From: a virus
Lineage: Duplodnaviria; Heunggongvirae; Uroviricota; Caudoviricetes
DNA: 31,472 nucleotides
Virus record (IMG/VR): IMGVR_UViG_2585427730_000006
Coordinates: 1 to 31,472 of that record
Strand: one strand, 5' to 3'
The notes beneath the pieces were generated by a model that saw only the letters and a list, made by a program, of their open reading frames with translations, ran no database searches and was not told the origin of the DNA. Made by a program: the position numbers and the translations under genes. Each line of letters begins with the position of its first letter. Positions within the stretch are counted from its first letter, which is position 1. Below, in pieces: positions 3,661 to 21,347 of this stretch.

Positions 3661-3900
3661 CTGTTTTGATTAACGCTAAGCTTTTTCATCAGCATTGAAA
3701 TTTAACATGTGTTTTACAAACTTATGTCTTATCACTACCTTATCATTTTTTACATACACCATAAATATTTTTAACTAAAAATTTTTGGTTTTCAACCTGA
3801 AATCTTTATCTTTAAAAACAAAACATTACAATATTTTTAGTAAGATACCTTACCTAATGTAATGTGAATGGCTCAATTTTGATTAACACTTAAGCTATGT
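3661..3900. repeat. Imperfect direct repeat pair (ttttgattaacGCT-AAGCT / ttttgattaacACTTAAGCT) about 210 bp apart, bracketing the AT-rich region upstream of the ParA-like gene; an inverted repeat cattaca...tgtaatg lies between them at ~3824-3867
   Basis: Copies at about 3665-3683 and 3875-3895, read directly from the sequence. Confidence 0.4.
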
Positions 3901-4156
3901 TAATAATGGTTTTGTAAGTGTGATGAGGGTTCCATATGAAGAAGTGATTTCCCGAACAATACAACATGAATATCATCCTCGTAGTCGGTGTTTCTTCACA
4001 TGAACTCTGTCGCAAATACGCTATATGAAACGTGGCAAGATGAATGTACCTGAGGTTATCAATCTTAAACCGCTTGAGAGTACGCCCTGATCCTGCCCGT
4101 TGATAAACTAACTGCATTGTTTGTAATGCTTCATCGGTGGTGAGAACAAGTTTCAT
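3890..4156 (-). CDS. Hypothetical 88-aa ORF, possibly a gene remnant at the boundary of the AT-rich cassette
   Basis: The first ~60 codons are in moderate-GC DNA, the C-terminal ~30 codons run into AT-rich sequence containing the distal direct repeat; no motif recognised. Confidence 0.25.
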   Translation of the reverse strand: MKLVLTTDEALQTMQLVYQRAGSGRTLKRFKIDNLRYIHLATFHIAYLRQSSCEETPTTRMIFMLYCSGNHFFIWNPHHTYKTIINIA

Positions 4157-4662
4157 ACTTCCGCTTCTCGCTCAAAGCGGACTAGAAGGTTAGCTTGCGT
4201 CGGACTTGGCGTATTTAAAGAAGTACTGGTGGTGACTGGTTGTTGTGTTCCATTTCTACAGAACAAAATCACAGAAACTATACCCAATAGTTGTATCTCA
4301 TCAATGATGAGACAGCCTCATATTTATCAGGACTGGTGTACGTCCAATACAGGAGGTTGTCGTGCTGGTTCTCAAATGTGCGCTGGCTATTGCAGCTGTA
4401 ATGGCAATTTATTGTCTTGCTGTTGTTCTTATGGATCGCCTTTCTGATTGATTTTATATTGGCGAGGTAACGGGAGTTAAGTAGAATGGCTGCGGGTGCT
4501 TGAGGCTATCTGTCTCAGGCATGAACACCAAAGGCAGATAGAGAAAAGCCCCAGTTAACATTACGCGTCCTGCAAGACGCTTAACATTAATCTGAGGCTC
4601 AATCTATGAACGGCAAATCTAGGTTAGCCTCTTACGTGCCGAAAGGCAAGGAGAAGCAGGCT

Positions 4663-4818
4663 ATGAAGCAGCAAAAGGCGATGTTAATCGCCCTGATCGT
4701 CATCTGTTTAACCGTCATAGTGACGGCACTGGTAACGAGGAAAGACCTCTGCGAGGTACGAATCCGAACCGGCCAGACGGAGGTCGCTGTCTTCACAGCT
4801 TACGAACCTGAGGAGTAA
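4663..4818 (+). CDS. hokD: Hok/Gef-family type I toxin, 51 aa, HokD/RelF-like
   Basis: Translation MKQQKAMLIALIVICLTVIVTALVTRKDLCEVRIRTGQTEVAVFTAYEPEE has the Hok signature (single TM, conserved Cys, C-terminal AVF.AYE); AAGGAG RBS 11 nt upstream. The in-frame upstream extension from 4606 in the ORF track is probably not the real start. Confidence 0.8.
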   Translation: MKQQKAMLIALIVICLTVIVTALVTRKDLCEVRIRTGQTEVAVFTAYEPEE

Positions 4819-4885
4819 GAGACCAGGCGGGGGAGAATCCCTCGCCACCTCTGATGTGTCAGGCATCCTCAACGCACCCGCACTT

Positions 4886-4911
4886 AACCCGCTTCGGCGG
4901 GTTTTGTTTTT
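4886..4911 (+). terminator. Rho-independent terminator downstream of hok
   Basis: Hairpin cccgc-ttcg-gcggg followed by ttttgtttttt. Confidence 0.6.
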
Positions 4912-4984
4912 TCCTAGCATTCTGGTTTACAATTCGCACGCCAGCCTGAACAACTGGCACCTGCTGCGCCAGCAGAGACAACCG

Positions 4985-5263
4985 ATGGCGCACGATACCA
5001 AATTACACAATTCTGATGATTCTGCCGTCTTTGCCAGCAGGCACGGGCGGCGTTCCCGCACTTTCAAATCTGACTGGTTCCAGCATCCCCCATGCACTGA
5101 AGAACAGGCCGAGTGGCTAATTCAGTGCTACCGCAGACACGGATACGAGATTAAGAAAGCCCTCAGCCTCGATTATCGTCACTGGATAATCTCCGTCAGG
5201 CTTCCTTACTCCGAACGCCCACCGCGTCCGTCCCGCACATTCCAGCAACGCATCTGGAGGTAA
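4985..5263 (+). CDS. Hypothetical protein, 92 aa, in the position Rem occupies in Qin-type prophages
   Basis: ORF with ATG at 4985, between hok and the DUF968 gene; identity inferred from gene order only. The track ORF starting at 4856 overlaps the hok terminator, so the internal ATG was chosen. Confidence 0.45.
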   Translation: MAHDTKLHNSDDSAVFASRHGRRSRTFKSDWFQHPPCTEEQAEWLIQCYRRHGYEIKKALSLDYRHWIISVRLPYSERPPRPSRTFQQRIWR

Positions 5264-5264
5264 C

Positions 5265-6311
5265 GTGCGGGTATTACTTCGACCTGTTCTGGTACCGGAA
5301 CTCGGGCTGGTGATCGTTAAGCCGGGCCGGGAATCCATGCCGGTATTCCACAATACCCGGGTACTGGTGGAGCCGGAACCAAAAAGCATGCGTAATCTGC
5401 CGTCCGGGGTCGTTCCTGCCGTTCGCCAGCCGCTAGTGGAAGACAAAACATTGCTGCCGTTTTTCAGTAACGCACGGGTGATTCGTGCTGCTGGTGGTGC
5501 TGGTGCATTGTCTGACTGGCTGTTGCGCCATATTAAATCCTGCCAGTGGCCTCATGGTGATTACCATCACAGCGAAACCGTCATACATCGTTACGGTGCT
5601 GGCGCGATGGTGTTGTGCTGGCACTGTGACAACCAGTTGCGTGACCAGTCCTCCGAATCACTTGAGCAACTTGCTCACCAAAACCTGTCAGCATGGATGA
5701 TTGATGTCATGCGCCATGCAATGAATGGCACACAGGAGCGGGAATTATCGCTGGCTGAATTATCCTGGTGGGCTGTCTGCAATCAGGTGGCGGACGCACT
5801 ACCGGAGGTAGTATTACGTCGTTCTCTGGGGTTACGTGCGGAAAAAATTCGCTCGGTGTACCGCGAAAGCGACATCGTACCGGGAGAGCAGACCGCCACC
5901 AGCATACTGAAGCAGCGCACAAAAAATCTTGCGCCGCTGCCTCACGCCCACCAGCAAAATCCACCACAGGAAAAGACGGTGGTCAGCATTGCTGTTGATC
6001 CGGAGTCTCCGGAATCTTTCATGAAGCGACCTAAACGTCGCCGTTGGGTAAATGAGAAATATACGCGCTGGGTAAAGACACAGCCGTGTGCGTGTTGTGA
6101 TAAGCCAGCCGACGATCCCCATCACCTGATTGGTCATGGTCAGGGCGGAATAGGGACAAAATCCCACGATATTTTCACGCTACCGCTGTGTCGGGAGCAT
6201 CACAACGAGCTTCATGCGGATCCGCTGGCGTTCGAAGAAAAGCATGGTTCCCAGATTGATTTAATTTTTCGTTTTCTTGATCGCGCCTTTGCAACCGGCG
6301 TGCTCGGGTAA
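5265..6311 (+). CDS. DUF968-family protein (YdfU-like) with a C-terminal HNH-like Cys/His motif
   Basis: 348-aa ORF, apparently GTG-initiated 2 nt after the previous stop; C-terminus CACCDKPADDPHHLIGHGQ...CREHHNELH; size and position match YdfU-type proteins of lambdoid nin regions. Confidence 0.75.
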   Translation: MRVLLRPVLVPELGLVIVKPGRESMPVFHNTRVLVEPEPKSMRNLPSGVVPAVRQPLVEDKTLLPFFSNARVIRAAGGAGALSDWLLRHIKSCQWPHGDYHHSETVIHRYGAGAMVLCWHCDNQLRDQSSESLEQLAHQNLSAWMIDVMRHAMNGTQERELSLAELSWWAVCNQVADALPEVVLRRSLGLRAEKIRSVYRESDIVPGEQTATSILKQRTKNLAPLPHAHQQNPPQEKTVVSIAVDPESPESFMKRPKRRRWVNEKYTRWVKTQPCACCDKPADDPHHLIGHGQGGIGTKSHDIFTLPLCREHHNELHADPLAFEEKHGSQIDLIFRFLDRAFATGVLG

Positions 6312-6323
6312 AAGAGGTTACTG

Positions 6324-6695
6324 ATGCGTATAGAGTTTGTTTTGCCTTCCCCGCCGACGGTGAACACCTACTGGCGTCGTCGTGGCAGCACATATTTTGT
6401 ATCAAAAGCCGGTGAGCGTTATCGCCGGGATGTGGCACTTATTGTCCGCCAGCAGCGGCTGAAATTAAACCTGTCCGGAAGGCTGGCAATAAAAATTACT
6501 GCAGAGCCGCCGGATAAGCGCCGTCGGGACCTGGACAATATCCTGAAAGCACCGCTGGATGCACTGACGCATGCGGGGCTTCTCATAGACGACGAGCAGT
6601 TTGATGAAATCAATATTGTGCGCGGTAAGCTCGTTCCTGGTGGTCGGCTGGGCGTGAAGATTTGCGAAATTAGAGGTGATAGTAATGGGGCGTGA
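6324..6695 (+). CDS. rusA: RusA-family Holliday junction resolvase
   Basis: 123 aa; catalytic-region motif RRRDLDN and overall resemblance to RusA; AAGAGG RBS upstream of ATG 6324. Confidence 0.85.
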   Translation: MRIEFVLPSPPTVNTYWRRRGSTYFVSKAGERYRRDVALIVRQQRLKLNLSGRLAIKITAEPPDKRRRDLDNILKAPLDALTHAGLLIDDEQFDEINIVRGKLVPGGRLGVKICEIRGDSNGA

Positions 6696-7038
6696 TATGT
6701 ATGAGGTTTTAGACCGCTGGGGGGCATGGGCTGCAGCAGAAAATAGTGGTGTCGATTGGCAACCGATAGCAGCGGGCTTCAAGGGGCTTTTACCTCATGG
6801 TAAAAAGTCACGGATTCAGTGTGATGATGACGAAGGCATTATGATAGACAGTTGTGTGGCTCGGTTGAGAAGGTATAAACCAGAGGAATATGAGCTCATC
6901 ATAGCCCACTTTGTTATTGGTATCTCATTACGCACTATTGCCAAAAAGAGAAGGTGTTCAGATGGCACGATTAGAAAGGAATTACAAACTGCAATTGGTT
7001 TTGTAGAGGGTATTACGAGCGTTATTGCATGTAAATAA
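6685..7038 (+). CDS. Late antiterminator Q, QuuD-type
   Basis: Translation (MGRDMYEVLDRWGAWAAAEN...WQPIAAGFKGLLP...CDDDEG...CVARL...CSDGTIRKELQ) matches the pattern of DLP12 QuuD. Start taken as ATG 6685; GTG 6676 is an alternative. Overlaps the rusA 3' end. Confidence 0.75.
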   Translation: MGRDMYEVLDRWGAWAAAENSGVDWQPIAAGFKGLLPHGKKSRIQCDDDEGIMIDSCVARLRRYKPEEYELIIAHFVIGISLRTIAKKRRCSDGTIRKELQTAIGFVEGITSVIACK

Positions 7039-7244: not shown

Positions 7245-8528
7245 CTATGACCGTGAAAAGTAGTGATGGTTCAGTTCTTTTGCAAAATAGTGCTTACGTT
7301 TAACCCAGATAAAACCATCAGCTTTAGAAATGATTGCAACATCTATGGGGCCTCCCACTGTTTCAGTATCATCGGAGACCTTGCGCTTGAAAGCGGTTAA
7401 ATTTACTAATGATTCAGCCATATAAGCTAAATCTTGCTTGGGTAAAAACTCGATCATATTTACGACTTTGTCAACATAGTTTTCTCGGACAAAGCTATCA
7501 ATACGCCCCTTGCAATCGGAAACAGTTCTGCGCACTACATCAACTATAGCATCCTTGGCTCCTTCGATATCTGAAGTGGGCACCAAATCTGTGATTACTG
7601 AATCAATACCATCAAGTAAATCGCCGATAGAACGTTGATACTCAGCATGAAGATTTTGGATAAGATGTGAACTAGCTCCTTGCATGAAAGCAGAAACTTC
7701 ATCCTCTTGCGCAAAGGGAGTCACGCCGCAATTAGGAGTGATGCAGCACTTGTCAGCATCTGTGGTTTTCCTTATTTTATCATTAAAGAAGCCACAAACT
7801 TCATATGATAATACTTTAGGGTAATAGTCTTTATCGCCATAACCTGCAATCACAATCCCAGAGACGGAACCAATATCACTTTGCTTGCATATCATAGCTG
7901 CCAATACATCACTAACTGCTTTTGTCAACTGTGGAGTTATGGATATTGAATCAAAGTCACTAAACTTTTGAGCAATGATGCGTTGGGTAATTGATGAAGC
8001 ATAGGTTTGGGCTGCTTGTTCATCATCCGGAGTAAAACCATCAAAGTAATTAATATCAGATAATTTTGTAAGGAGATCGTTGCAATAATTCGTGAGGTCT
8101 GTAACAAATTGATTCTTATCGAAGTTAACGAGATATGTTGGTTCGAGACCTTCAGAAAAAGCATCAACAAGCATGCTGAATACAATCTCGCTCAGGAAGT
8201 GATAAAGATGAGCCTCACGCATACCTGGTGTGATGATTGATTTAGCTGACTGTAGATAATTGAAGAAATCCTCAGCATATTCCTCCAAAGAGTCAAAACA
8301 TTTAGAGCCTAAATCCTTTCTATAAGCCTTAATGATAAGCTCCCATGGAGCTGTGCAGAGATCACCAGTTCCATATACCATCAAACCTACAGGATGATGT
8401 TTAGTGAGAGCGAAAAGCTTTTCAGCGCCATTATAGATTTTATGTTTGCCGCCTCCAGAAATCGTTACAGCTGAATCTGCGGCTAAAGCTACTGCGGTCT
8501 TGTTAAATACGGCTATTTCTGCTGTCAT
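7245..8528 (-). CDS. Hypothetical protein, 427 aa; possible divergent proteasome-beta/HslV-like Ntn hydrolase with large insertions (inference only)
   Basis: Long ORF in visibly lower-GC DNA, opposite to late-gene orientation. N-terminus MTAEIAVFNKTAVALAADSAVT...GAEKLF aligns by eye with the proteasome-beta/HslV N-terminal segment (Thr1, acidic residue 17, Lys before LF); C-terminal GGPIDVAIISKADGF resembles the proteasome-beta GG.IDVAVI.KDG motif. Confidence 0.8.
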   Translation of the reverse strand: MTAEIAVFNKTAVALAADSAVTISGGGKHKIYNGAEKLFALTKHHPVGLMVYGTGDLCTAPWELIIKAYRKDLGSKCFDSLEEYAEDFFNYLQSAKSIITPGMREAHLYHFLSEIVFSMLVDAFSEGLEPTYLVNFDKNQFVTDLTNYCNDLLTKLSDINYFDGFTPDDEQAAQTYASSITQRIIAQKFSDFDSISITPQLTKAVSDVLAAMICKQSDIGSVSGIVIAGYGDKDYYPKVLSYEVCGFFNDKIRKTTDADKCCITPNCGVTPFAQEDEVSAFMQGASSHLIQNLHAEYQRSIGDLLDGIDSVITDLVPTSDIEGAKDAIVDVVRRTVSDCKGRIDSFVRENYVDKVVNMIEFLPKQDLAYMAESLVNLTAFKRKVSDDTETVGGPIDVAIISKADGFIWVKRKHYFAKELNHHYFSRS

Positions 8529-10343: not shown

Positions 10344-10419
<76 letters not shown>

Positions 10420-10422
10420 TAT

Positions 10423-10497
<75 letters not shown>

Positions 10498-10855
10498 GAG
10501 AAACAAGCCTTATTGTATCGTTGCACTGGCGTATTTTTTATTGCGTGGGAGCAGGTTGTTTTTAAAAGGCATTCTGTTTTCTGGCTGTGATTTGAGGTCG
10601 GTTATAGCCACAGTGCTGTTTTTTACACCACTGGAATGGTGCATTATCGGTGGAAATTGAGCATTTCCTGACAGGGGCCGATGATGCACTATCCCGGTGT
10701 TGTAAATAACACTACAGAGGTGTTCCTCAGTGCGAGGGTGGTTTATGTAACTGTTTAGCGGGAAACCACAGTATTCATGGAGAGATGGATACTTCGGGGG
10801 GCACCCGACACCTCTGTTTTTCTACTACAAAAATGATTCATCTCTGGCATTTTTC

Positions 10856-10884
10856 AACCGCCGTTCCGGGCGGTTTTTTTTATT
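10856..10884 (+). terminator. Rho-independent terminator in the tRNA-to-lysis intergenic region
   Basis: aaccgcc-gttccg-ggcggtt followed by an 8-T run. Confidence 0.6.
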
Positions 10885-11201
10885 CTGAACTCAGAAAAGA
10901 ATACACGGGCATTGATATTACCCGTGTGGCAAGGCCATGAAAGCCAATAATGAACTGAGCGCAAAAAAAGCGCGGCTGTCGGATTAACGCCGCGGGACAA
11001 AGTCCGTGAAGAAGAATAAGCATCAGTCTCCTCCAGGAGACGATTTGATATTACTAAGCTTTAAAAATGGTTTAAACCCCCGGATTAACCTTAATTTCAG
11101 ATAAGCTTTATTTCATTTTCTCCGAGCCACGTCAGGCGCATATCACATCAGATAACACCACATAAAAGGTATCTGCGGGTGCCTTTCACGGGGTGTTTTT
11201 T

Positions 11202-11228
11202 TACGGGCCGCTGGTGGCCCTTTTTTAT
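11202..11228 (+). terminator. Terminator-like hairpin immediately upstream of the lysis cassette (candidate tR'-type element)
   Basis: gggcc-gctggt-ggccc followed by ttttttattt, ending ~15 nt before the holin RBS. Confidence 0.5.
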
Positions 11229-11244
11229 TTACAGGAGAAAAAGT

Positions 11245-11637
11245 ATGTCTGAACCCTTATCCGGTTCCGGCACGGCTGCAGCGCTCGGCGGGGCGACGGT
11301 GTACGGGCTGTTTACCGGAACGGATTTCGGGATTGTGTTTGGTGCCTTTGCCGGGGCGTTATTTGTGGCAACGATGCCGCAGGCGCTTTCAGCCTGGCGT
11401 GTGGCGGCACATTTTCTGGTGTCGTTCATTGTTGGTGTGCTGGGGGCAGAAGTTCTGGCATCCTGGCTGGTAAAGCATACAGAGTTTGACGGTGCACCTG
11501 TCGACGCATTGTGTGCAGTACTGGTGTCAGTGGTGTCGGTGAAGATTCTCTCGTTCATCCACCAGCAGGATATTGCATCACTGGTGTCCGGTCTGTTCTC
11601 CCGTCTGCGGGGCGGAGGAGGCGGCAATGTTAAGTAA
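11245..11637 (+). CDS. Putative holin, 130 aa, multi-TM
   Basis: AGGAG RBS before ATG 11245; several Gly/Ala-rich hydrophobic segments; first gene of the lysis cassette. The track ORF starts earlier, at 11179. Confidence 0.55.
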   Translation: MSEPLSGSGTAAALGGATVYGLFTGTDFGIVFGAFAGALFVATMPQALSAWRVAAHFLVSFIVGVLGAEVLASWLVKHTEFDGAPVDALCAVLVSVVSVKILSFIHQQDIASLVSGLFSRLRGGGGGNVK

Positions 11638-11905
11638 CCTTCCCGGATTGCTGAATGTGGCGTTATGCACGGTTATCGTGCTGACGCTCTTTTTTTATCG
11701 TCGTCGTGATTCCAGACATAAACCGTTGATGTCATGGCTGGCCTGGCTGCTGATGCTGCTTTATGCCTTTGCACCACTCAGTTATCTGTGCGGTCGCCCG
11801 TTAGCGGCGAACTGGCTGGCGGTGGGGCTTAATCTGCTGTTCTGCGTGTTGGTTATTCGCGCACGCGGGAACGTTTCAAAAATCTTTGTATTACGAAGAC
11901 GCTGA
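11627..11905 (+). CDS. Small multi-TM membrane protein, 92 aa (second holin or antiholin-like)
   Basis: ATG 11627 overlaps the upstream stop; three hydrophobic segments and a basic C-terminus (RARGNVSKIFVLRRR). Confidence 0.5.
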   Translation: MLSNLPGLLNVALCTVIVLTLFFYRRRDSRHKPLMSWLAWLLMLLYAFAPLSYLCGRPLAANWLAVGLNLLFCVLVIRARGNVSKIFVLRRR

Positions 11906-11906
11906 T

Positions 11907-12452
11907 ATGAAGTCGAAAGATGAAATTTTTGACGAAGTTCTGGGAAAAGAGGGCGGTTACGTCAATCACCCGGATGATAAAGGCGGACCGACAAAATGGG
12001 GTATTACGGAAAAAGTCGCCCGCGCTCACGGATATCAGGGCGATATGCGTGACCTGACACGCGAACAGGCACTGGAAATCCTTGAGGCGGATTACTGGTT
12101 CGGACCACGCTTTGATCAGGTGGCCGCATTATCCTCTGATATTGCTGCAGAGTTGTGTGATACCGGTGTGAATATGGGGCCGTCCGTAGCATCGAAAATG
12201 CTCCAACGCTGGCTGAACGTTTTCAACCTGCAAGGCAAATTGTTCCCGGATATGGACGCAGACGGGCGTATCGGCCCCCGCACGATTAATGCACTACGGA
12301 CTTATCTGCAAAAACGCGGCAAAGACGGCGAACTGGTGATGCTGAAGGCGCTGAATTGCACGCAGGGCGACCGCTATCTGGAGCTGGCAGAAAAACGCGA
12401 GGCCAACGAGTCGTTTGTCTACGGCTGGATGAAAGAGCGCGTAGCAGTTTAA
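11907..12452 (+). CDS. Endolysin, glycoside hydrolase family 108 with C-terminal peptidoglycan-binding domain
   Basis: N-terminal signature EGGYVNHPDDKGGPTKWGIT typical of GH108 lysozymes. Start set at ATG 11907; TTG 11886 is the alternative. Confidence 0.8.
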   Translation: MKSKDEIFDEVLGKEGGYVNHPDDKGGPTKWGITEKVARAHGYQGDMRDLTREQALEILEADYWFGPRFDQVAALSSDIAAELCDTGVNMGPSVASKMLQRWLNVFNLQGKLFPDMDADGRIGPRTINALRTYLQKRGKDGELVMLKALNCTQGDRYLELAEKREANESFVYGWMKERVAV

Positions 12453-12545
12453 AAACTGACGCTGAAGTGCTGAACACCCTCAACTCACGCAGGCTCTTTT
12501 CTGGGGTTACGATGAGCGAAAGTAAGGGGTACAGCATCAGATAGC

Positions 12546-12580
12546 AAAAACCCCGGCTGCTGGAACAGTCCGGGGTTTTT
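12546..12580. terminator. Strong hairpin terminator after the endolysin gene
   Basis: aaaaa-ccccgg-ctgctggaacagt-ccgggg-ttttt. Confidence 0.65.
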
Positions 12581-12671
12581 AGTTTTCACGTCAAAGAGGA
12601 AATTGTGAGTAGTGAGTACGGAGAAAATCCTCGTGGGAAAGTATAAAAGATTCTTTTTGAGGTTGTCCATT

Positions 12672-12785
12672 ATGAAAGGTATTGAAGTGGAAACTCCCGC
12701 GAGCCTTGATTTGACAAGGGCTGCGGCCTTTGCAATTCGCCTTGTGGCGGTCGCTGTTCTGATTTGGGCTGTGCGTTGGTGGTGA
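12672..12785 (+). CDS. Possible 37-aa membrane peptide, translationally coupled to the downstream lipoprotein gene
   Basis: ATG 12672 with GAGG ~10 nt upstream; C-terminal hydrophobic stretch AAAFAIRLVAVAVLIWAV; stop overlaps the next ATG (ATGA at 12785-12789). Below the ORF-track size cut-off; hand-translated. Confidence 0.3.
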   Translation: MKGIEVETPASLDLTRAAAFAIRLVAVAVLIWAVRWW

Positions 12786-12786
12786 T

Positions 12787-12969
12787 ATGACGCGAAAACA
12801 CTGGACACACAGAATGCCGCGAACGGCGGCGAAATGGGCACTGGTAGCGATACTGGTGCCTTTTTTCTTGGTGGGATGCGTCAGCCTGGATAAAGCGCGC
12901 CAGCTTTTCGATACGGCTTCTCAGGTCTGTGAAATTGTCGACGGTGTTCGGCAGTGTATGCAGAACTGA
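12787..12969 (+). CDS. Small lipoprotein, 60-aa precursor, with lipobox LVGC
   Basis: Signal peptide then FFLVGC lipobox; mature part ~29 aa with three Cys; sits where an Rz1-type o-spanin would be but is not Pro-rich. Confidence 0.45.
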   Translation: MTRKHWTHRMPRTAAKWALVAILVPFFLVGCVSLDKARQLFDTASQVCEIVDGVRQCMQN

Positions 12970-13109
12970 TCGCCTGTAAGAGCAGAATATTTTGCTGAAA
13001 AATGAAGGGGTCACTTGCGTCCGGAAAGCATGAAATTCTATGTTTGTGATCATTCGATGACATAATTTCTTACTTCCGCCGTTTCCGGGGGGGAGGAACA
13101 AAGTAGAAA

Positions 13110-13131
13110 GAGTTGCCCGTTTGATGGGCAA
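13110..13131. terminator. Hairpin between the convergent lipoprotein gene and bor
   Basis: gttgccc-gtttgat-gggcaac. Confidence 0.45.
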
Positions 13132-13140
13132 CTCATGCAG

Positions 13141-13434
13141 TTATTGTGAGCAATACACACGCGCTTCCAGCGGAGTATAAATGCCTAAAGTAATAAAACC
13201 GAGAAATCCATTTACGAATGTTTGCTGGGTTTCTGTTTTAACAACATTTTCTGCGCCGCCACAAATTTTGGCTGCATCAACAGTTTTCTCCTGTCCAATT
13301 CCCGAAACGAAGAAATGATGGGTGATGGTTTCCTTTGGTGTTACTGCTGTCGGTTTGTTTCCAACAGTAAACGTCTGTTGAGCACATCCTGTAATAAGCA
13401 TTGCCAGAGCGGCAGAAAACAACATTTTTTTCAT
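13141..13434 (-). CDS. bor: Bor lipoprotein (serum-resistance lysogenic conversion protein), 97 aa
   Basis: MKKMLFSAALAMLITGCAQQTFTV...LEARVYCSQ, near-identical to lambda Bor as recalled; start set at the MKKM ATG (13434) rather than the longer track ORF. Confidence 0.9.
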   Translation of the reverse strand: MKKMLFSAALAMLITGCAQQTFTVGNKPTAVTPKETITHHFFVSGIGQEKTVDAAKICGGAENVVKTETQQTFVNGFLGFITLGIYTPLEARVYCSQ

Positions 13435-20321: not shown

Positions 20322-21347
20322 ATGTCGATGTACACAACCGCCCAGCTGCTGGCGGCAAATGAGCAGAAATTTAAGTTTGATCCGCTGTTTCTGCGTCTCT
20401 TTTTCCGTGAGAGCTATCCCTTCACCACGGAGAAAGTCTATCTCTCACAAATTCCGGGGCTGGTAAACATGGCGCTGTACGTTTCGCCGATTGTTTCCGG
20501 TGAGGTTATCCGCTCCCGTGGCGGCTCCACCTCTGAATTTACGCCGGGATATGTCAAGCCGAAGCATGAGGTGAATCCGCAGATGACCCTGCGTCGCCTG
20601 CCGGATGAAGATCCGCAGAATCTGGCGGACCCGGCTTACCGCCGCCGTCGCATCATCATGCAGAACATGCGAGACGAAGAGCTGGCCATTGCTCAGGTCG
20701 AAGAGATGCAGGCAGTTTCTGCTGTGCTTAAGGGCAAATACACCATGACCGGTGAAGCCTTCGATCCGGTTGAGGTGGATATGGGCCGCAGTGCGGCGAA
20801 CAACATCACACAGTCCGGTGGTACGGAGTGGAGCAAGCGTGACAAGTCCACGTATGACCCGACCGACGATATCGAAGCCTATGCGCTGAACGCCAGCGGA
20901 GTGGTGAATATCATCGTGTTTGATCCGAAAGGCTGGGCGCTGTTCCGTTCCTTCAAAGCCGTCAAGGAGAAGCTGGATACCCGTCGCGGCTCTAATTCCG
21001 AGCTGGAGACAGCGGTAAAAGACCTGGGCGAAGCGGTGTCCTATAAGGGGATGTATGGCGATACGGCGATCGTCGTGTATTCCGGACAGTACGTGGAAAA
21101 CGACGTCAAAAAGAACTTCCTTCCGGACAACACGATGGTGCTGGGGAACACTCAGGCACGCGGTCTGCGCACCTATGGCTGCATTCAGGATGCGGACGCA
21201 CAGCGCGAAGGTATTAACGCCTCTGCCCGCTACCCGAAAAACTGGGTGACCACCGGCGATCCGGCGCGTGAGTTCACCATGATTCAGTCAGCACCGCTGA
21301 TGCTGCTGGCTGACCCTGATGCGTTCGTGTCCGTACAACTGGCGTAA
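20322..21347 (+). CDS. E: Major capsid protein E
   Basis: 341 aa from MSMYTTAQLLAANEQKFKFDPLFLRLF...; terminator-like hairpin at 20287-20308 upstream. Confidence 0.95.
   Translation: MSMYTTAQLLAANEQKFKFDPLFLRLFFRESYPFTTEKVYLSQIPGLVNMALYVSPIVSGEVIRSRGGSTSEFTPGYVKPKHEVNPQMTLRRLPDEDPQNLADPAYRRRRIIMQNMRDEELAIAQVEEMQAVSAVLKGKYTMTGEAFDPVEVDMGRSAANNITQSGGTEWSKRDKSTYDPTDDIEAYALNASGVVNIIVFDPKGWALFRSFKAVKEKLDTRRGSNSELETAVKDLGEAVSYKGMYGDTAIVVYSGQYVENDVKKNFLPDNTMVLGNTQARGLRTYGCIQDADAQREGINASARYPKNWVTTGDPAREFTMIQSAPLMLLADPDAFVSVQLA

Follow-up and report, generated by a model that had tools for sequence, protein, structure and literature searches.

We analyzed the lysis region of a tailed phage of the class Caudoviricetes, which is available as IMG/VR virus record IMGVR_UViG_2585427730_000006. 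The whole stretch of 31,472 nucleotides (nt), positions 1 to 31,472 of that record, is referred to below as the window. The region between positions 11245 and 12969 is best explained as a late lysis operon of the P27 type that lies downstream of the gene for the Q antiterminator, and in which two predicted holins and a soluble endolysin are followed by a terminator-like hairpin, a 37-amino acid (aa) membrane peptide (p37), and a 60-aa prolipoprotein. This lipoprotein is the main subject of our analysis. It takes the place that the two-component spanin Rz/Rz1 has in related phages, and it may carry out the outer-membrane step of lysis without an inner-membrane partner.

Gene content of the lysis cassette

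The following features were identified in the cassette and directly next to it:

11245..11637, plus strand: holin 1, 130 aa, Phage_holin_8 (PF16931, E 3e-22; phrog_198 holin, E 3e-43)
11627..11905, plus strand: holin 2, 92 aa, Phage_holin_3_7 with three transmembrane segments (PF05449, E 2.9e-21; phrog_217, E 2.2e-37)
11907..12452, plus strand: soluble endolysin, 181 aa, GH108 muramidase with PG_binding_3 (PF05838, E 1.7e-26; PF09374, E 1.2e-25; phrog_315)
about 12546..12586, plus strand: hairpin of the intrinsic-terminator type, with A-run, G+C stem and T-run (dG -24.7 kcal/mol, z -4.85)
12672..12785, plus strand: p37, a 37-aa tail-anchored membrane peptide ending in RWW (pN/pS 0.09)
12777..12789, plus strand: coupling junction TGGTGGTGAtATG, read from the sequence, in which the end of p37 and its stop codon form a Shine-Dalgarno (SD)-like GGTGGTGA before the lipoprotein ATG
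12787..12969, plus strand: 60-aa prolipoprotein with lipobox L-V-G-C and Cys31 (pN/pS 0.19)
12787..12876, plus strand: predicted lipoprotein signal peptide spanning residues 1-30; its basic n-region and hydrophobic core are followed by L28-V29-G30 before Cys31
12877..12969, plus strand: predicted mature 30-aa lipopeptide CVSLDKARQLFDTASQVCEIVDGVRQCMQN and stop codon, with Val at +2
13141..13434, minus strand: bor/iss (RefSeq: increased serum survival lipoprotein Iss)

Both membrane proteins combine a profile match with multiple transmembrane domains (TMDs), as expected for the Phage_holin_8 and Phage_holin_3_7 families, and are predicted to be holins. Holin 1 scored 79.5 bits against PF16931 (gathering cut-off 26.4) and has broad hydrophobic regions at residues 26-77 and 81-107. 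Holin 2 scored 75.7 bits against PF05449 (cut-off 25.4) and has three hydrophobic segments, and the reading frames of the two genes overlap by 11 nt. The endolysin contains both domains of its type, with 93.0 bits for PF05838 (cut-off 21.2) and 89.9 bits for PF09374 (cut-off 24.6), and has no transmembrane or other hydrophobic segment, hence neither a signal nor a signal-arrest-release sequence. It is 81-88% identical to the endolysins that precede the lipoprotein (L189, L192, L193) or spanins (L107) in other loci of our comparison set, which are designated here by L numbers.

The Q gene (PF06530) is located at 6676-7038, and Nu1 and the terminase A gene follow from 14378 on the same strand as Q. 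Lambda-type homology (98.5%) picks up again at about 13105, approximately 4 nt before the Rz stop codon. An identical locus is present in about a dozen complete Escherichia coli genomes, several of them labelled as enterotoxigenic E. coli (ETEC), and in these genomes both small open reading frames (ORFs) are annotated as hypothetical proteins. A preliminary description of this stretch, made from its sequence alone, had listed two holin-family proteins, a GH108 endolysin, a terminator, a 37-aa membrane peptide and a 60-aa lipoprotein with the lipobox LVGC, and had noted that a recognizable Rz/Rz1 spanin pair was missing. Our results bear out this gene content at the same positions, as well as the missing Rz/Rz1, for which Pfam, NCBIfam, PHROG, and tblastn searches all returned no match.

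The lipoprotein family

Both small ORFs of the cassette, the lipoprotein and p37, are real genes under purifying selection. For the lipoprotein, the pN/pS ratio calculated over 49 unique alleles is 0.19, as compared with values near 1 and 2 for the two alternative frames. Since this ratio is 0.155 in the first nine codons, we favor the upstream ATG as the start of the gene. In an alignment of 20 homologues, the columns V20, A21, I22, L23, V24, L28, G30, and C31 are invariant, and Cys48 and Cys57 are kept in at least 90% of the sequences; both of these cysteines are also found in relatives with about 60% identity. The sole hydrophobic segment of the precursor, residues 13-37, corresponds to the signal peptide, and there is none in the mature 30 aa. 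The mature peptide has a hydrophobic stripe of heptad-like positions (A7, L10, A14, V17, V21, V24, and M28) and a net charge of -1. The lipobox with Cys31, the absence of Asp at +2, and the location of the gene next to the lysis cassette agree with the signal criterion for outer-membrane spanin subunits (o-spanins) of Kongari et al. 2018. Lipidation of Cys31 and sorting to the outer membrane (Val at +2) are predicted accordingly by the precursor sequence.

The lipoprotein matches phrog_7528 over its full length (E 5.7e-39, positions 1-60 of 60), and DNA matching its gene occurs at 553 places in E. coli, with 355 of the 5426 complete genomes containing it. Neither the lipoprotein nor p37 had a match in searches of Pfam (E <= 1), NCBIfam, PADLOC, and PDB sequences, and the PHROG matches of both are to families of unknown function only. 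A profile search over 1.84 billion representatives retrieved only 24 clusters, all of them tiny lipoproteins of 44-85 aa or obvious fusions, with no longer or annotated relative among them.

Position of the lipoprotein gene across related phages

Three IMG/VR scans yielded 149 distinct 2.7-kb contexts with an intact lipoprotein. An endolysin, either an M15 peptidase or a GH108 muramidase, precedes the lipoprotein in all 149 of them. The lipoprotein gene stands directly after the endolysin in 74 contexts (in four of these with a minus-strand 90-aa ORF between the two), and after p37, with or without a gene for a 93-aa protein, in 75 contexts. A KilA-N gene sits between the endolysin and the lipoprotein in one GenBank phage record, vB_Apl-pPE4 (L005). 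This record (PP818812, ‘Actinobacillus phage vB_Apl-pPE4’) contains E. coli P27-type holins and the lipoprotein with 80-94% protein identity, which is unexpected in a phage of the Pasteurellaceae, and its host attribution may be wrong.

The upstream holins are represented either by hol8 and hol3_7, the families of holin 1 and holin 2, or by a lambda-S-type holin in L195 and L196, where the cassette is Q-dependent. The phage backbones that carry the lipoprotein include lambdoid ones with Q (the window and L195), those with a P27-type terminase (L006, L189), and a Mu-like one with GemA, Mor, and Portal_Mu (L198). Deeper relatives retain the same gene order, namely the Yersinia enterocolitica prophages L189-L191, the locus L193, the Mu-like L198 and L199, a metagenomic M15 cassette (L194), and the Q-dependent cassettes L195 and L196. 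A 2.7-kb contig with an 80%-identical holin 2, assigned to a ‘Bacillota bacterium’ metagenome-assembled genome (L108, JAEWMQ010000075.1), is probably a mis-binned fragment of an enterobacterial phage.

In six loci (L189, L190, L191, L193, L198, and L199), the start codon of the lipoprotein gene shares bases with the stop codon of the GH108 gene (ATGA), so that there is no room for a separate lipoprotein promoter; in the other loci the gaps between endolysin and lipoprotein are only 3-42 nt. The ATGA-type arrangement was also seen for the inner-membrane spanin subunit (i-spanin) that follows an 88%-identical GH108 endolysin in Yersinia phage vB_YpM_41. The usual marks of a moron (its own promoter and terminator, atypical composition, and separability) do not apply to the lipoprotein, given the ATGA overlaps, its G+C content, and the lack of a promoter-like site. 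Its G+C content of 53.6% matches that of the lysis genes (50-57%), as opposed to 41% for bor, and no promoter-like site was found on the plus strand between 12453 and 12787. By these sequence comparisons, the lipoprotein gene is the conserved last functional gene of the predicted P27-type cassette.

Search for spanins at the locus

Searches of the window against Pfam, NCBIfam, and PHROG (E <= 1) revealed no spanin match. We also ran tblastn queries with nine reference spanins, taken from six phages or contigs, complemented by manual reading of ORFs; these queries found nothing in the lipoprotein loci, and the Rz of Shiga toxin (Stx) phages found nothing in the window. Across the whole 31.5-kb window there are only two lipobox-containing ORFs, the 60-aa lipoprotein and bor/iss. 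In hhalign comparisons, the lipoprotein obtained a probability of 13% to Rz and 3.5% to Rz1, in both cases limited to signal-peptide-like stretches. The likeness of Rz and the lipoprotein in a C-terminal ‘RxQC’ was rejected as a sign of homology, as hhalign gives it no support. The idea of an Rz remnant in 12970-13140 was dropped as well: lambda homology begins about 4 nt before the Rz stop codon, and tblastn detected no Rz there. The N-terminal TMD of the Stx-type Rz (L008, 1797-1870) has a lipobox-like LLLGC-GSL resembling FLVGC-VSL of the lipoprotein; with an hhalign probability of 13%, this resemblance is probably due to chance.

An i-spanin is expected to be encoded by an adjacent gene and to have an N-terminal TMD and a substantial periplasmic domain, and no gene of this kind is present at the locus. 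In the minimal cassettes, no TMD-bearing ORF flanks the lipoprotein, the flanking ORFs being soluble. As possible inner-membrane partners, hol8 and hol3_7 were dropped, because both coexist with complete spanins in HK639 and vB_YpM_41. The lipoprotein does not depend on either of them, since L195 pairs it with a lambda-S-type holin.

Mutual exclusivity of the lipoprotein and Rz/Rz1

In the more distant cassettes of phages HK639, ENT39118, 118970_sal3, and vB_YpM_41, which share the same holin family, a canonical pair of i- and o-spanin genes is found directly after the endolysin. To compare the contents of this slot, loci were drawn via hol3_7 (holin 2), blind to the fourth gene. The 77 evaluable loci comprise 56 with the lipoprotein, five with Rz and embedded Rz1, none with both, and 16 with neither. 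By our own arithmetic, the hypergeometric probability of such a lack of overlap is about 1e-3, uncorrected for the relatedness of the loci. An intact lipoprotein together with a spanin match was not found in any of the loci examined.

Two closely related cassettes illustrate the replacement. L152, which has Rz/Rz1, and L007, which has the lipoprotein, share 90% identity from hol8 up to and including the 93-aa gene, after which L152 continues with a 45-aa peptide and Rz/Rz1, and L007 with the hairpin, p37, and the lipoprotein. In Stx2 phages (O104:H4 C227-11, GER2, and 12 IMG/VR contigs), the gene order is S-R-p37-Rz/Rz1, followed by a decayed copy of the lipoprotein. This copy contains a frameshift and two in-frame TAG codons and retains the end of p37 at its 5' side. 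All 12 viral contigs that include the decayed allele and its upstream sequence are S-R-p37-Rz cassettes.

The p37 peptide and the hairpin

The p37 peptide has one hydrophobic segment at residues 12-37 approximately (KD19 window), with the membrane core placed at about 17-34. Its TMD is C-terminal and leaves at most 16 residues outside the membrane; having virtually no periplasmic domain, p37 is not an i-spanin. It matches phrog_4493, phrog_1115, and phrog_3246, all of unknown function, and its protein homologues are all unannotated. Of the 5426 complete E. coli genomes, 1321 contain DNA that matches p37. Among the 149 distinct lipoprotein contexts, p37 is present in 75 and absent from 74. The start codon of p37 is preceded by GAGG 9 nt upstream. 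A 57-aa form with a GTG start was rejected, as the frame of the 20 upstream codons is not kept in the Stx phages, which have a 5-nt indel there, and GAGG stands before the ATG.

The lipoprotein ATG is located 1 base after the p37 stop codon. In Stx2 phages, where p37 is placed after R, it is joined to Rz by the same stop-T-ATG junction, and the junction survives at the decayed lipoprotein copy. The terminal codons of p37, TGG-TGG-TGA, make up the SD-like GGTGGTGA for the downstream gene. An RWW-stop (TGGTGGTGA) also ends different small peptides before Rz or the lipoprotein (window 12777-12789, L008 about 1790-1800, and L152 5213-5225). The C-terminus of these peptides may be constrained by translational coupling, with the RWW-stop read as an SD-like sequence. 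Other small membrane peptides found in the place of p37 include the 45-aa peptide before Rz in L152, which ends in IRWW, and peptides of phrog_1115 and phrog_4906 in L021 and L192.

For the hairpin between the endolysin and p37, none of 200 shuffled sequences folds as well. The same hairpin, with a different inner stem and the structure preserved, was found in the O104:H4 Stx2 phage L008 between R and p37-Rz (-21.1 kcal/mol) and in L021 (-27.3 kcal/mol). It does not represent the boundary of the late operon, because it is followed by Rz in the Stx phages and by Nu1, A, and the structural genes in the window. Judging from late transcription in lambdoid phages, the Q-modified polymerase is expected to read through the hairpin. 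We propose that the hairpin and p37 form a portable unit that is inserted just before whichever gene for the outer-membrane step is present, the lipoprotein here and Rz/Rz1 in the Stx2 phages. The last codons of p37 would supply the ribosome-binding site for the downstream gene, and p37 itself would be an accessory or modulator and not the partner of the lipoprotein.

These results change several points of the preliminary description. The terminator that it placed after the endolysin does not mark the end of the lysis unit and does not set the genes after it apart, given the same hairpin in front of Rz in Stx phages and Nu1 and A beyond it. The coupling that it proposed for the two small ORFs agrees with their adjacency, with stop and start codon one base apart, but they are not an obligate pair. 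It left open whether the pair is an unusual spanin equivalent or separate cargo (for example an exclusion or envelope-modifying lipoprotein) with spanins missing. The first of these options is favored for the lipoprotein alone, based on its slot, coupling, and exclusivity with Rz/Rz1; it fails for the pair, as p37 is facultative and precedes a complete Rz/Rz1 in the Stx2 phages.

The phiP27 homologue and its spanin assignment

The lipoprotein is 98% identical over 51 aa to the product of phiP27 20706-20858. This phage has the holins and the lipoprotein in common with the window, an M15 endolysin, and no homologue of p37. Kongari et al. 2018 (PMC6139136) classified phiP27 as having a ‘separated’ two-component spanin, both components of which are singleton families, with the shortest periplasmic length in their set, 62 residues. 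The SpaninDB supplement of the same work gives the o-spanin at 20706-20861 (precursor of 51/60 aa and mature part of 30 aa, as tabulated) and the i-spanin at 20348-20542 (PMC6139136).

The listed i-spanin (L002, 4287-4481) is a 64-aa ORF with a TTG start that lies antisense to a 90-aa ORF (L002, 4271-4543, minus strand). The 90-aa ORF matches phrog_36812, and the 64-aa ORF matches no PHROG family. Moreover, neither the window nor most of the sister cassettes contain the 64-aa ORF. The family has thus already been listed by rule as the phiP27 o-spanin; what our sequence comparisons add is evidence indicating that it has no i-spanin. The preliminary description had named a match to known spanin families as a point that would speak against it. 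Such a match exists in a weak sense only, as the 98% identity to the rule-listed phiP27 o-spanin, and there is no similarity to Rz or Rz1. In the RefSeq record of phiP27 (NC_003356, L002), the coding sequence ‘L32’ at 4569-4724 lies in a frame other than the conserved one of the lipoprotein; the real ORF is at 4612/4645-4800, which is 20679 or 20706 to 20861 in record coordinates.

Comparison with known outer-membrane lysis systems

The closest relative among the described systems is the phiP27 ‘o-spanin’ (phrog_7528), which belongs to the same family and has the same holin pair upstream. In contrast to phiP27, the window has a GH108 instead of an M15 endolysin, an inserted hairpin and p37, and a lambda-like instead of a P27-like backbone. 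Lambda Rz/Rz1 resembles the window lipoprotein in its operon place after the endolysin and in having a lipoprotein component with periplasmic cysteine(s), and one can replace the other within a common cassette, as seen in L152 and L007. However, the window has no i-spanin, and the mature part of its lipoprotein is a 30-aa, predicted helical peptide without proline, unlike the proline-rich Rz1 of L152. As there is no sequence similarity, the lipoprotein does not belong to the Rz/Rz1 family. With the unimolecular spanin gp11 of phage T1 it shares a single gene in the lysis cassette and an N-terminal lipoprotein signal, but it has neither a C-terminal TMD nor a long beta-rich periplasmic domain and hence is not a unimolecular spanin.

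The disruptin gp28 of phage phiKT is likewise a small, predicted-helical, outer-membrane-associated replacement of spanins (bioRxiv 10.1101/515445). Whereas gp28 is a cationic, non-lipoprotein peptide of 56 aa, the window peptide is predicted to be lipid-anchored, has a charge of -1 and two conserved cysteines, and so falls outside the definition of a disruptin. By our own arithmetic, a helix of 30 residues reaches about 45 angstroms at most, far short of the periplasm. Since the lipoprotein cannot bridge the periplasm and is not cationic, it is by definition neither a spanin nor a disruptin.

Colicin lysis proteins (PF02402) and entericidin B are non-cationic lipoproteins with precursors of about 45-52 aa and mature parts of about 28-30 aa, and they permeabilize the E. 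coli envelope alone. They are not known to have the two extra cysteines or a predicted helical fold. The lipoprotein has no PF02402 match in Pfam (E <= 1) and shares with them only the size class and the lipoprotein nature. These small colicin-release lipoproteins may be its nearest functional analogues. A possible analogue of p37 is Lcc6 of phage LambdaSo, a 65-aa protein of previously unknown function with a single TMD that is needed for lysis and acts at the holin step (bioRxiv 10.1101/2024.01.23.576932). Both are small single-TMD phage proteins encoded in the lysis region, and Lcc6 illustrates that lysis cassettes can need extra small membrane factors. In contrast to Lcc6, with its 65 aa and its action at holin level, p37 has 37 aa, is facultative, and always lies immediately upstream of the gene for the outer-membrane step.

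Functional interpretation

The comparisons described above show that the lipoprotein belongs to the lysis operon, occupies a slot equivalent to that of Rz/Rz1, is mutually exclusive with spanins, and has no i-spanin candidate. We give about an even chance to the reading that it acts as a stand-alone outer-membrane lipoprotein which performs the outer-membrane step of lysis without an i-spanin. The precursor would receive its lipid at Cys31 and then be directed to the inner leaflet of the outer membrane, as suggested by Val at +2, and the helical mature peptide would build up in this membrane during late expression. The two conserved cysteines could join across the D-G turn as an intramolecular staple, or they could connect several copies of the peptide. 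After the holins and the endolysin have removed the peptidoglycan, the lipopeptide would destabilize the outer membrane, and the job of a spanin would be done without an i-spanin and without bridging the periplasm.

A broader proposal, which we hold more tentatively, is that a 30-aa lipid-anchored helical peptide acting alone constitutes a third kind of phage outer-membrane disruptor, beside the spanins and the cationic disruptin. It would then serve P27-like, lambdoid, and Mu-like enterobacterial phages, including the Stx2e phage P27 and the ETEC prophages with this locus. By analogy with the colicin release lipoproteins, such a disruptor might act through direct destabilization of the outer membrane or through activation of a host factor, e.g. 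outer membrane phospholipase A (OMPLA).

A number of observations weigh against the stand-alone reading. The SpaninDB entry for the phiP27 o-spanin, whose coordinates (20706-20861) coincide with the ORF of the lipoprotein family, is rule-based, and a spanin of unknown type could escape detection based on nine reference proteins and manual ORF reading. The exclusivity counts for lipoprotein and Rz/Rz1 do not take phylogeny into account. The decayed copies count as a single event, because they represent one allele in one lineage. Two phages with genes for type II heat-labile enterotoxin (LT-II), Rac-SA53 and SerU-LTIIb, have neither the lipoprotein nor a detectable spanin, and in 14 loci a deletion has removed everything from p37 to the lipoprotein. 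Since cassettes with neither lipoprotein nor spanin exist, prophages can persist without the lipoprotein, and morons such as LT-II, KilA-N, and bor are also accommodated after the endolysin. As for the peptide itself, the AlphaFold2 model is a single helix over residues 13-59 with a pLDDT of 66 (low to moderate confidence), and the hydrophobic moment of 0.53 is equalled by 227 of 5000 shuffles, i.e. its amphipathicity is marginal. The mature 30 aa with their charge of -1 differ from the cationic phiKT disruptin, and no mechanism of outer-membrane damage can be read from them. Finally, we found nothing relevant in the literature on experiments with the lipoprotein family, P27 lysis, or orphan o-spanins.

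Several alternative explanations were considered. The lipoprotein, alone or together with p37, may be cargo, that is, a moron with an envelope-modifying, exclusion, or host-fitness role, located in the stretch from the endolysin to the packaging genes where morons are common, in phages that simply lack an outer-membrane lysis function. This would be consistent with the presence of LT-II toxin genes, KilA-N, the 93-aa gene, and bor in the same slot, with the cassettes that have neither lipoprotein nor spanin, with the location of the window lipoprotein after the terminator and next to bor/iss, and with the approximately 13% of phages in which no spanin can be identified (Kongari 2018, PMC6139136). 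However, we consider it unlikely, because the gene overlaps the endolysin stop codon in six loci and follows within 3-42 nt elsewhere, without room for a promoter of its own, and its G+C content fits the lysis genes and not bor. Its link to the 3' end of the endolysin gene is kept over three kinds of phage backbone and with two types each of endolysin and holin. In addition, no intact copy accompanies a spanin, the copy next to Rz/Rz1 is decayed, and there is no PADLOC defence match. A role as a lysis regulator that controls timing or endolysin activity, e.g. as a periplasmic brake or protection factor, seems quite unlikely to us. Some co-occurrence with spanins would be expected of a regulator, as opposed to none in 149 contexts. 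The swap of a peptide with Rz/Rz1 for p37 with the lipoprotein on a shared cassette points to equivalent functions, and the two unrelated endolysin folds that precede the lipoprotein (M15 peptidase and GH108 muramidase) argue against enzyme-specific control. What such a role would account for is the operon membership and the coupling to the endolysin, as well as a mature peptide too short to bridge the envelope, and small extra membrane factors of lysis are indeed known, e.g. Lcc6 of LambdaSo, which acts at the holin step.

The two remaining alternatives keep a two-component spanin. In one of them the lipoprotein is a true o-spanin whose inner-membrane partner has escaped recognition; this partner could come from another part of the phage genome, from the host, or from among the holin-family proteins. 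In favor of this reading, the phiP27 homologue is listed in SpaninDB as a separated o-spanin, the periplasmic cysteines that the family conserves are reminiscent of the disulfide-linked spanin complexes treated by Kongari et al. 2018, and i-spanins of other topology were thought possible in the same work (PMC6139136). We nevertheless judge this improbable, given that minimal cassettes have no TMD-bearing ORF beside the lipoprotein, that the lipoprotein occurs with a lambda-S-type holin in L195 and so does not depend on hol8/hol3_7, and that these holins coexist with complete spanins in HK639 and vB_YpM_41 and so do not substitute for an i-spanin. Furthermore, the length of 30 helical residues is well below the width of the periplasm. 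The other alternative is a minimal spanin composed of p37 in the inner and the lipoprotein in the outer membrane. One membrane peptide and one lipoprotein, adjacent and coupled here and both under purifying selection, would make a formal pair. But p37 is missing from 74 of 149 contexts, including all the overlapped, ancestral-looking ones, and from phiP27, it stands upstream of a complete Rz/Rz1 in the Stx2 phages, and with its C-terminal TMD and no more than 16 residues outside the membrane it does not have the form of an i-spanin. We therefore regard this pair as very improbable indeed.

The phiKT disruptin is the only characterized alternative by which phages without spanins are known to open the outer membrane. 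The lipoprotein family offers a compact candidate in the form of one 60-aa gene, for which nature provides controls in the sister cassettes that have Rz/Rz1 at this position, the decayed copy, and the deletion variants. If the lipoprotein works alone, it would represent a new class of membrane-disrupting lipopeptide and would correct the two-component entry of phiP27 in SpaninDB. It would also be relevant to how toxins are released by Stx2e and ETEC prophages, a process that requires lysis. Should the lipoprotein not suffice by itself, these widespread prophages would be spanin-less, which would itself need an explanation.

Neighboring genes and related cassettes

Upstream of the cassette, the region 10344-11244 of the window contains tRNA-Thr(TGT) and tRNA-Gly(TCC), followed by about 750 bp without a convincing ORF and with several terminator-like hairpins (e.g. 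10856-10875 and 11205-11220). This slot is empty here; in relatives it holds stx2e (phiP27) or pertussis-like toxin genes (Rac-SA53 and the Cronobacter locus L192). A 427-aa ORF on the minus strand at 7245-8528, directly downstream of Q, has no Pfam match and corresponds to the RefSeq hypothetical protein WP_000123148.1. On the other side, the bor homologue adjoining the lysis cassette has a G+C content of 41%, a classic mark of a moron.

Variation was also seen after the endolysin gene in related cassettes. Genes for LT-II enterotoxin directly follow the holin-holin-GH108 cassette in L103 (Rac-SA53, 4018-6455) and in L102 (SerU-LTIIb, 3744-6368). In the deletion variant (L165, 4233-5437, and 13 similar IMG/VR loci), GH108 is followed by an ORF of 47 aa, in which nothing but the initial MKGIE of p37 is left, and then by bor; these loci have neither the lipoprotein nor a spanin.

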